In this document: positions 34,815-36,278 of the stretch, in pieces
How the letters are laid out: every line of letters starts with the position of its first letter
Numbering within the stretch: the first letter of the stretch is position 1
Origin: an uncultured Planctomycetota bacterium
GTDB lineage: Bacteria; Planctomycetota; J058
Reading direction: 5' to 3'
Length of the DNA: 59,460 nt
NCBI GenBank assembly: GCA_964569055.1
Contig: CAZMSZ010000001.1
Span: 1 to 59,460 of the forward strand
Position numbers and translations under genes: made by a program
The notes under the pieces: generated by a model
Told to the model about the DNA's origin: nothing
Seen by the model: the letters and a program-made list of their open reading frames with translations, nothing else
Database searches by the model: none

Positions 34815-36278
34815 ATGAACACGCGCCAGAGCCCGAGAGTGGGGCAGAAGCGCTACGCTAGGCCGTCCCCGACCCCTGACTCCGAGCGTCGCTCGCCGAC
34901 GCCGCCGCCGTCGCAGGGACACTTGCTCGGTGGCGTTCCCATCGCGTCTCCTCCGCGTGTTCCCATCACGCCTGCGGACGACGCGATCGAGCCGCGCCAA
35001 AGCCAGCGGCGGAAGCCCAGCGCGAGTCCGCGCGAGCGGTCGAAGTTGGAGTCCAAGTCGGACTCCGACTCCGATGCGGACGAGGAGTGGCTTCCGTCCG
35101 GCGCCGACGCGGATGTCGAGTCGAGCTCGAAATCGGAATCGGAGCTCGATCGGCGCGGCAAGGACCTCTACAAGACCGGGCAGCCCTTGACGGCATTCAC
35201 GCTCAACCTCGCGAAGTTTGGCGATGGAACCGAACCTTCGGTGAAGGCCAGCAAGCGTGAAGTGGTCGCTCGGATGCTCGAGCTGTGGCAGCCCGCGTTC
35301 ATGGCCCTGCAGGAGGTGACAAATCCCGAAAGGTTGTTCCAGGGGAAGGGAGCGACTCGTCGCCGCGCGGCAGACCCGGGCCTCGCACAAATCAATGTGA
35401 TGGCGCTCGAGGCCTCGGACTCGGAGTCGGACTCGGAATCGAAGTCGCAACCAAGTTCGAGCTCGTCCAGCTCGGCCGCCGACCTGCCGGGGCCCATGCC
35501 CGAGCTGCCCGTCGAGGACGACTACGCACTGTTGCATGGGCCCAGCTTCGAGAGTGGCACTTATCACGAGCACTACTCCTTGATCTACAACAGGCGACGG
35601 GTGGTCGGCGTGCCTCAGCTGTACCACTACGACCCAGAGCAGAAGAAGCTCGTCGAGGCGCCCGGCAATCAGGCGGTTCACTCCTTCAGCTCCAAGGCCA
35701 AGAAGACGCGGCCCCTCCCCTTCTGGAGCATCGCCCTCGATACGTCCGACTACCACCTGCGGCCCGAGGTGCGCGGGCGGAAGCGCGAGCGCGAGGTCAC
35801 CAACGTCCTCGCCGCGGTCGTGCACACCTCGCCGTCGATCAACGTCAAGGGGGAGGTCGACGACATCCTCGCCGCCCTCGAGCAGGTCCGACTGAACGAG
35901 GAGAAGAGCAACACGCCCAGGGCCATCCTCGCGCTGGGTGACTTCTACATGCAGCGCGCCAACCCGAAGCTCTACGAGGCGCTCCAGCAAGGCGCCAGGG
36001 GTTGGAGGCTCCTCGCGCCCCCGACCCACACCAACTTCCCTCACAAGGGGAGCGGGCAGACCGCCGACCACGCCGTGCTCCAGGACGAAAGGGTCTCGGG
36101 CCTGTGGGCCCGCGCGATCGGGCCCGGACGCCACGGATCGGTCGAGGACGCGACGGAGGCACCGCAGGAGCAGCTCGCCAACTGGCCAAAGAAGAAGATG
36201 GACCACGCCCCGGTGGCGCTGGGCTTCACCCTGCCCGGCACCTCCATGGGCCCTCCGCAGGAGGACGAGGACCTGTAG
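34815..36278 (+). CDS. Candidate CIS cargo: endonuclease/exonuclease/phosphatase (EEP, DNase I-like) family protein with long disordered leader
   Basis: ATG at 34815 behind GGAGGG, inside ORF 34383..36278. EEP motifs: FTLNLAKFG...FMALQEV, VVHTSP, LALGDFY, KKMDHAPVAL. The N-terminal ~130 aa are Pro/Ser/Arg-rich with KSDSDSDADEE, and SDSESDSESKSQPSSSSSSS is inserted in the core. Confidence 0.75.
   Translation: MNTRQSPRVGQKRYARPSPTPDSERRSPTPPPSQGHLLGGVPIASPPRVPITPADDAIEPRQSQRRKPSASPRERSKLESKSDSDSDADEEWLPSGADADVESSSKSESELDRRGKDLYKTGQPLTAFTLNLAKFGDGTEPSVKASKREVVARMLELWQPAFMALQEVTNPERLFQGKGATRRRAADPGLAQINVMALEASDSESDSESKSQPSSSSSSSAADLPGPMPELPVEDDYALLHGPSFESGTYHEHYSLIYNRRRVVGVPQLYHYDPEQKKLVEAPGNQAVHSFSSKAKKTRPLPFWSIALDTSDYHLRPEVRGRKREREVTNVLAAVVHTSPSINVKGEVDDILAALEQVRLNEEKSNTPRAILALGDFYMQRANPKLYEALQQGARGWRLLAPPTHTNFPHKGSGQTADHAVLQDERVSGLWARAIGPGRHGSVEDATEAPQEQLANWPKKKMDHAPVALGFTLPGTSMGPPQEDEDL

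Follow-up and report, generated by a model that had tools for sequence, protein, structure and literature searches.

A divergent DNase I-like protein with a disordered leader as predicted cargo of a contractile injection system in an uncultured planctomycete

The contig CAZMSZ010000001.1 of an uncultured Planctomycetota bacterium, of which the stretch of 59,460 nucleotides analysed here is called the window, carries the structural operon of an extracellular contractile injection system (eCIS) and, behind it on the same strand, a gene at 34815..36278 (+) that translates to an open reading frame (ORF) of 487 aa. An initial annotation, made from the sequence alone, had described the product as an enzyme of the endonuclease/exonuclease/phosphatase (EEP) superfamily of the DNase I or CdtB type, and had proposed that it is a payload of the injection system that is directed to eukaryotic cell nuclei. 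The whole window has about 74% G+C and long spurious ORFs are therefore plentiful; real genes were told from them by a codon-position test. The gene at 34815 is confirmed as real: the G+C content at third codon positions (GC3) is 0.87 inside it, a Shine-Dalgarno-like sequence precedes it, and independent gene calls on six metagenome contigs gave the same product, the protein being identical across contigs of several sequencing runs. ATG 34815 is the start, because GC3 drops to 0.56 in the possible 5' extension from GTG 34383, and the 631-aa ORF that would begin there was ruled out by this drop together with its overlap with the preceding gene in another frame. The gene and its parts are the following.

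34815..36278 (+): gene for a leader plus a divergent DNase I-like EEP domain (as predicted), supported by ORF, ribosome-binding site, GC3 and identical calls on six contigs
34804..34809 (+): Shine-Dalgarno-like GGAGGG, 6 nt before ATG 34815
34815..35045 (+), aa 1-77: basic Pro/Ser/Arg-rich head of the leader, proposed eCIS packaging signal (charge, hydropathy)
35046..35150 (+), aa 78-112: acidic Ser/Asp/Glu neck of the leader, KSDSDSDADEE ... SSSKSESE (charge)
35178..36239 (+), aa 122-475: EEP (DNase I-like) catalytic domain, as predicted by AlphaFold2, Foldseek and profile matches
35205..35207 (+): Asn131, putative metal/phosphate-site Asn of motif I (LNLAKFG), invariant, aligned to FN of DNase1L3 and DNase I
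35313..35315 (+): Glu167, putative metal-binding Glu of LQEV, invariant, aligned to ME/QE of DNase1L3 and DNase I
35409..35501 (+), aa 199-229: disordered Ser/Asp/Glu-rich insertion (AlphaFold2 confidence), with the core SDSESDSESKSQPSSSSSSS at 35415-35474
35562..35576 (+): Y250-H-E252-H-Y254, DNase I-type YKE.Y strand, E252 conserved in 95% and Y254 in 87%
35709..35711 (+): Arg299, 100% conserved in the family
35823..35834 (+): H337-T-S-P340, putative catalytic His motif, H, T and P 100% conserved
35937..35948 (+): G375-D376-F-Y378, GDxN motif with Tyr for Asn, G, D and Y 100% conserved
36066..36068 (+): Asp418 (QTADH), expected partner of the catalytic His, 97% conserved
36201..36206 (+): Asp463-His464 (MDHAPV), putative terminal catalytic DH motif, D 97% and H 100% conserved

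All strings and low-complexity tracts that the initial annotation had quoted were located in the protein, namely KRYARPSPTPDSERRSPTPPP (aa 12-32), RRKPSASPRERSK (aa 65-77), KSDSDSDADEE (aa 81-91), SSSKSESE (aa 103-110), LNLAKFG (aa 130-136), ALQEV (aa 164-168), SDSESDSESKSQPSSSSSSS (aa 201-220), GRKRERE (aa 321-327), GDFY (aa 375-378) and MDHAPV (aa 462-467).

Taken by itself, the 487-aa protein matches no Pfam family at E<=0.1 and no model of NCBIfam or PHROGs, a single-sequence phmmer search of the PDB returned just a spurious match to ribosomal protein L13 (E 0.95), and a profile of three sequences had no match in the PDB. A word-indexed search of 5.8 billion proteins yielded two distant relatives, one from a metagenome-assembled genome of the Acidimicrobiales and one Chryseosolibacter protein annotated as DUF4157-containing, and when 1.84 billion cluster representatives were searched exhaustively with an HMMER profile, 74 proteins were obtained at E<=1e-3, 35 of them at E<=1e-30. 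Judged by these searches, the EEP family to which the protein belongs appears to be real but rare. An alignment of 49 family sequences was used for an AlphaFold2 model, for profiles and for the analysis of conservation. The model reached a pLDDT of 88.1 and a pTM of 0.87 (an earlier run with three sequences was poor, with a pLDDT of 50.9, and was not used), and it contains the four-layer alpha/beta sandwich of the EEP superfamily, the first strand of which starts at aa 123, behind a short family-conserved helix at about aa 110-120. When the model was compared with the PDB by Foldseek, 151 matches were obtained at E<=1e-3, and EEP enzymes make up all of the best 50 (E 1.5e-10 to 2e-8), with a Bacteroides EEP protein, CNOT6L, TDP2, DNase I, DNase1L3 and Nocturnin among the top matches and with DNase I reaching the highest target-normalised TM-score (0.68). 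Pfam Exo_endo_phos (PF03372) is matched directly by 10 of the 49 relatives (best E 4.4e-11), and EEP membership of the 487-aa protein, whose own Pfam match is absent, is thereby established transitively and by the fold.

Sequence profiles separate the EEP subfamilies better than the Foldseek scores do. The full family profile matched DNase1L3 with an E-value of 2.2e-6, and after trimming to the domain, its E-value for DNase1L3 was 4.1e-8 and those for four DNase I sequences lay between 5e-5 and 1.5e-4, with TDP2 next at 0.02 and all others above 0.1. No CdtB or sphingomyelinase chain appeared at E<=1 in the PDB profile search, and CdtB was not in the Foldseek top 50 either, so that of the proposed DNase I/CdtB likeness the DNase I part holds and the CdtB part does not. 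The alignment that had been suggested for deciding the subfamily thus points to an EEP superfamily member with DNase I and DNase1L3 as the nearest subfamily, as far as profiles and model can tell. The label that seems to fit best is that of a divergent DNase I-like protein, not of a DNase I orthologue, because GDFN, a defining DNase I motif, is not preserved. Some relatives (P0036, P0038, P0032, P0044, P0051) have Cys-rich, zinc-finger-like N-termini, to which poly-Asn or poly-Thr tracts are added in P0032, P0036 and P0038; the contig of P0038 looks bacterial.

The family alignment is conserved to 95-100% at the columns of N131, E167, E252, R299, H337, T338, P340, G375, D376, Y378, D418, D463 and H464. 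The core motifs LNLAKFG, ALQEV, GDFY and MDHAPV, on which the EEP assignment of the initial annotation was built, coincide with such conserved columns and are therefore not chance matches; together with the fold, this bears the assignment out. In the HMMER alignments, TYHEHY stands opposite TYKEQY of DNase1L3 (7KIU) and SYKERY of DNase I, and VHTSP opposite LHTTP and LHSAP, respectively. The DNase I counterparts are presumably N7 for N131, E39 for E167, Y76/E78 for TYHEHY, H134 for H337, D168/N170 for GDFY, D212 for D418 and D251-H252 for D463-H464. Asp418 would fit EEP motif V by the order of the motifs. Arg299 can only tentatively be equated with the Arg in the REP strand of DNase I, as it is aligned to the R of REPFVVW in the full-profile alignment and is gapped there in the trimmed-profile alignment. 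The residues of the canonical order N...E...(H/Y)...D-x-N...D...D-H are present and 97-100% conserved, but the Asn of D-x-N is replaced by Tyr378 in 100% of the members, and both HMMER alignments place this Tyr opposite the Asn of GDFN in DNase1L3 and DNase I. By alignment, the acid/base and metal-binding set (N131, E167, E252, H337, D376, D418, D463-H464) thus appears complete, with the GDxN Asn as the one exception. The initial annotation had quoted GDFY without flagging this change, while the catalytic residues that it wished to see checked are otherwise aligned and conserved. In EEP enzymes, the Asn of GDxN contacts the scissile phosphate.

The domain is preceded by a leader that is somewhat shorter than the 130 aa first given, namely about 110-122 aa if it is taken to end at the helix (start near aa 110) or at strand 1 (start at aa 123). 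Its disorder is confirmed by the charge-hydropathy analysis, in which aa 1-122 lie on the disordered side of the boundary, with a mean Kyte-Doolittle value of -1.39; S, P and T together make up 34% of these residues, and charged residues likewise 34%. Its build is bipartite: the head carries a net charge of +5 in the first 40 aa and of +4 over aa 6-21, with a Kyte-Doolittle value of -1.17 over aa 1-50, and the last 40 leader residues have a net charge of -8. Among the 40 family members with an N-terminal extension, a positive head is found in 31 and a negative neck in 23. No Sec-type hydrophobic core was seen in the leader, judged by eye. Loading of cargo into the Photorhabdus virulence cassette (PVC) needs disordered N-terminal signal peptides of 50-70 aa and the AAA ATPase Pvc15 (PMC11495950), and eCIS signal peptides in general combine disorder and strong hydrophilicity with a slight positive charge close to the N-terminus (PMC11297309). 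The first 50 residues of the 487-aa protein match these published traits (PMC11297309, PMC11495950).

A second low-complexity tract, the Ser/Asp/Glu-rich insert, does interrupt the catalytic domain as had been described. The hypervariable loop that holds it follows the Glu167 strand and precedes the Y-x-E strand, and the insert is the sole internal low-confidence stretch of the model (mean pLDDT 57-68 over about aa 200-229). Across the family this loop ranges from 7 to 231 aa, and it is strongly acidic also in P0028, P0040 and P0041; in P0021, P0022 and P0023 it holds very large helical inserts of 207-231 aa. In the DNA of the insert there is a short 6/12-nt repeat at 35414-35441 and the Ser codons are mixed; a recent origin of the Ser run by slippage was ruled out by these mixed codons and by the repeat being only short.

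The link to the injection system comes from the genes upstream, all of which lie on the same strand and bear out the operon context that had been claimed.

7020..31085 (+): eCIS structural operon (Pfam matches for this and the following lines)
7020-9797 (+): sheath
9825-10337 (+): gp19-type tube
10334-11068 (+): T4-baseplate-like protein
13857-15053 (+): Pvc16_N
15354-15983 (+): CIS_tube
17517-18419 (+): spike (Phage_base_V)
18762-19148 (+): gp25
19156-27604 (+): three large baseplate proteins
27618-31085 (+): DUF6519 + LamG/concanavalin-like + Kelch protein of 1155 aa, putative fibre or receptor-binding protein (Pfam and position)
32053..34023 (+): AAA+ ATPase with winged-helix domain, Pvc15/Afp15-type loader (Pfam AAA 2.2e-22, WHD 2e-13)
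34027..34752 (+): co-operonic gene of 241 aa (ORF, coding score)

The gene at 34815..36278 is the second one after the AAA ATPase: the gene at 34027..34752 starts 3 nt past the ATPase stop, and the 34815 gene starts 62 nt past the 34752 end of that gene. The same arrangement recurs elsewhere. The relative P0015, which is about 29-34% identical to the 487-aa protein and has a similar basic-then-acidic leader, is encoded directly after the tape-measure gene CIS_TMP and an AAA ATPase in an unrelated contig of 56% GC (L015), and the two ATPases share 38% identity. In addition, 7 of the 49 relatives, including P0003, carry an eCIS_core/DUF4157 domain N-terminal to the EEP domain (best E 2.9e-33), and DUF4157 is the signature domain of eCIS-associated toxins (PMC11297309). 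Neither the 487-aa protein nor its flanking genes contain DUF4157/eCIS_core. By gene order and domain architecture, three independent lines thus appear to tie the EEP family to eCIS, namely the locus in the window, the synteny at P0015 and the DUF4157 fusions.

As the gene is the second one after the AAA ATPase of a complete eCIS operon, a role as payload is the best reading, and this part of the earlier proposal stands. It is on the whole probable that 34815..36278 encodes a cargo toxin of the adjacent eCIS, that the leader is its packaging signal, and that the DNase I-like domain cuts DNA of the target cell. In this case the AAA+ ATPase (32053-34023) would recognise the disordered leader and load the protein into the tube lumen, with the first 110-120 residues, the basic head and the acidic neck, acting as the packaging signal; contraction would inject the protein, and the remaining about 365 residues, as an EEP metallo-phosphodiesterase, would then act in the target cell, with DNA as the most likely substrate for hydrolysis and another phosphodiester as a less likely one. 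The acidic segments might, as a speculation, serve as autoinhibitors that spare the producer.

Among known enzymes, the DNase I family (DNase I and DNase1L3/DNase gamma; PDB 7KIU, 4AWN, 2DNJ) shares the four-layer EEP fold, gives the best profile matches and has counterparts of the N, E, Y-x-E, H-x-x-P, G-D, D and D-H motifs in unchanged order, and the basic C-terminal tails of several relatives resemble that of DNase1L3. The differences are large nevertheless: structural alignments give about 12% identity, the Asn of GDFN is Tyr throughout the EEP family described here, the domain of the 487-aa protein is about 100 residues larger, with the hypervariable insert after the Glu strand, and the secretion signal is replaced by the disordered leader of about 120 aa or, in relatives, by DUF4157. 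Whereas the animal DNase I enzymes are secreted, the family described here is bacterial and eCIS-linked. CdtB, also in its PltB-associated form in typhoid toxin, is an EEP enzyme of the DNase I-like kind that serves bacteria as a toxin, and provides a conceptual model for a delivered genotoxin, but delivery would here be by injection and not by an AB2 holotoxin; no CdtA/CdtC or PltA/PltB partners are among the neighbours (AAA ATPase, 241-aa unknown, GNAT-SET, ORFan, Mfd).

Among known payloads, eCIS-associated toxins (EATs; Geller 2021; Danov 2024, PMC11297309; the PVC payloads Pnf and Pdp1, PMC11495950) are likewise encoded just downstream of the eCIS AAA ATPase, their hydrophilic, disordered, slightly basic N-terminus is found also in the 487-aa protein, and relatives fuse the toxin domain to DUF4157/eCIS_core. 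In comparison with EATs and PVC signals, the leader is about twice as long and has an acidic second half, and the copy in the window lacks DUF4157. Pne1, the nuclease effector of the Pseudoalteromonas luteoviolacea metamorphosis-associated contractile structures (MACs), which are an eCIS, is likewise a nuclease-type eCIS toxin of about 490 aa with an N-terminal region proposed for targeting, a nuclear localisation signal (NLS) being predicted at aa 19-52 (bioRxiv 10.1101/543298). For Pne1, activity and cell killing have been shown by experiment, whereas those of the 487-aa protein are predicted.

Several points weigh against the cargo toxin. The 487-aa protein itself has no match in Pfam, NCBIfam or PHROGs, its leader is about twice the 50-70 aa given for PVC signals, and as the GDxN Asn is a Tyr in every member, chemistry or substrate may differ from that of DNase I. 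Furthermore, no eCIS genes lie within 10 kb of most of the relatives examined, and linkage to eCIS is thus not universal; a tblastn search for eCIS structural genes around five genome loci of relatives found none. There is also no conserved adjacent immunity gene over 11 family loci, though a free DNase in the cytoplasm of the producer would need to be neutralised. It could be argued from the orphan relatives, and from the housekeeping gene mfd that starts about 3.6 kb downstream, that the protein is not injected at all, and is either a nuclease or phosphatase working alone, whose gene happens to sit where the eCIS operon gives way to housekeeping genes, or a decayed remnant that has lost its activity. 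This is highly improbable, as the order of AAA ATPase and EEP gene is repeated in an unrelated genome, eCIS_core fusions occur among the relatives, the genes of eCIS toxins often lie at a distance from the operon (PMC11297309), and the intact catalytic columns, the GC3 of 0.87 and the identity of the protein on contigs from several sequencing runs speak against decay. If the protein is an eCIS cargo, it might still not be a DNase, since EEP enzymes span many substrates, and the scaffold with its Tyr could act on phosphoinositides, sphingomyelin, RNA/poly(A), or a protein-DNA or protein-phosphate adduct. The Foldseek scores of TDP2, CNOT6L, Nocturnin and a mannosyl-6-phosphatase equal those of DNase I, and the family-wide change of Asn to Tyr argues for a selected functional difference; but in the profile search the other EEP subfamilies lag behind DNase1L3 and DNase I by two to five orders of magnitude, the DNase I-type YKE.Y strand and the HT.P motif are conserved, and the basic tails of relatives suit a nucleic-acid substrate, so that an enzyme of this other kind is quite unlikely. 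Very doubtful, too, is the more far-reaching idea that the family is a distinct, previously undescribed DNase I-like branch in which the universal Asn-to-Tyr change alters chemistry or substrate and the acidic disordered segments are DNA-mimicking autoinhibitors. The change would then be towards a Tyr-assisted or covalent phosphotyrosyl step, or towards a specificity for chromatin or modified nucleic acid, and one may speculate that the enzyme is kept harmless in a producer without immunity protein until unfolding and injection, or phosphorylation by the host, frees it.

It has further been proposed that the cargo is a nucleus-directed genotoxin for eukaryotic cells, with basic clusters of the leader as NLS and with acidic Ser/Asp tracts that host kinases such as CK2 phosphorylate. 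The DNase I-like fold with the precedents of CdtB and of Pne1, whose predicted NLS at aa 19-52 contributes to killing (bioRxiv 10.1101/543298), would fit, and so would the lack of a conserved immunity gene at the 11 loci, the adjacent GNAT-SET-LSMT gene and the putative fibre with its LamG and Kelch domains, which are eukaryote-flavoured. Tight basic clusters are found in the terminal extensions of relatives more often than by chance (27 of 64, against 12.9 expected from shuffles), for example KRKRKKR, RKKRKL or the bipartite-looking RKRALDGESNSPAKKARAA, and some resemble textbook NLSs. In the leader of the 487-aa protein itself, however, regex scans for classical patterns found neither K(K/R)x(K/R) nor a bipartite pattern, nor did four basic residues occur in any window of five, and the only such clusters, KKTR296 and RGRKRER320-326, lie inside the fold, in the family-conserved LRP...R loop, which takes away the GRKRERE cluster that had been read as NLS-like. 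The leader also needs no nuclear explanation, because disordered, hydrophilic, positive N-termini are the known eCIS loading signal (PMC11495950, PMC11297309), and the 19 S/T-x-x-D/E sites of the 487-aa protein, which are of the CK2 type, follow from its S/D/E composition. The basic tails of the relatives could equally bind DNA, like the C-terminal tail of DNase1L3. This tail is a basic, DNA-binding element. A eukaryotic or nuclear target is possible for the 487-aa protein, but the nucleus-directed genotoxin as such is unlikely, and of the earlier proposal the payload is thus kept and the nuclear direction is not.

If the protein is indeed a DNase I-like cargo, a candidate EEP-fold nuclease is added to the toxin repertoire of the eCIS. 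To our knowledge, few natural eCIS payloads are known, and eCIS are under engineering as protein-delivery devices; the unusually long natural packaging leader would be a candidate for study. Nuclease toxins of eCIS and disordered loading signals are both already known, and a limited text search that paired contractile injection system with exonuclease phosphatase found no EEP or DNase I-like eCIS payload in the literature. What appears to be new, by sequence comparison, is a rare unannotated EEP family with a universal Asn-to-Tyr change in a core catalytic motif, which offers a natural experiment on the otherwise invariant GDxN Asn of EEP enzymes. Phyla far apart from each other have the domain as predicted eCIS cargo, in some cases behind a long bipartite disordered leader and in others in fusion with eCIS_core; should eukaryotic chromatin prove to be the substrate, the enzyme would be a counterpart of CdtB that is delivered by injection.

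The gene between the ATPase and the EEP gene is possibly a second cargo or a helper. In its 241-aa product, the N-terminal 60 aa or so are disordered and rich in Ser, Pro and Thr, and a weak match to PFIN (E 0.031) was the only one, with none in PDB or PHROG; the DGMHRASYAAARR motif of the product is reminiscent of ParB/sulfiredoxin-fold proteins. As to the putative fibre gene at 27618-31085, the family member P0023 adjoins two LamG proteins of about 1050 aa. Also within the eCIS operon, a 931-aa ORF at 11065-13860 (+) scores low for coding (33, where its neighbours reach 100-280), has no Pfam match and lies partly in the bin of the window that is highest in G+C (12001-14000, 79% G+C); it may be a low-complexity tape-measure-like protein or a wrong gene model. 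The best named relatives of the Mfd protein encoded downstream, at about 60% identity, come from metagenome-assembled genomes of Planctomycetota, which on its own already makes a planctomycete the probable source. Downstream of the EEP gene and further away in the window lie these genes.

36571-38700 (-): fusion of GNAT, SET methyltransferase and Rubisco-LSMT substrate-binding domains, 709 aa (Pfam)
38851-39870 (+), possible earlier GTG 38725: ORF with EEP-like motifs SWNTEHKE, ILVQEP, TAHAPY, GDLNLY, PLDQ and PDHLPIY in canonical order
1344-2834 (+): fusion of Ser/Thr kinase and FGE-sulfatase domains (Pfam)
4103-5947 (+): matrixin (M10) peptidase with CarboxypepD_reg and TIG, just upstream of RNase III (Pfam)
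44388-45002 (-): Fic/DOC protein (Pfam)

The product of 38851-39870 is an ORFan that matched only itself among 5.8 billion proteins and had no PDB match. It was rejected as an EEP paralogue, as BLASTP was not significant and hhalign matched the DH-P strand alone, with a probability of 1%, and an EEP assignment would come from the motifs only. It has an Arg/Ser/Pro-rich disordered N-terminus and, at the C-terminus, a poly-Ser run followed by RKRVKK, and is possibly another cargo. The GNAT-SET-LSMT gene, which is convergent to the 34815 gene and lies between two leader-bearing ORFs, has a eukaryote-like architecture and itself no disordered leader; its product could be a protein-lysine-modifying effector or simply a neighbour.

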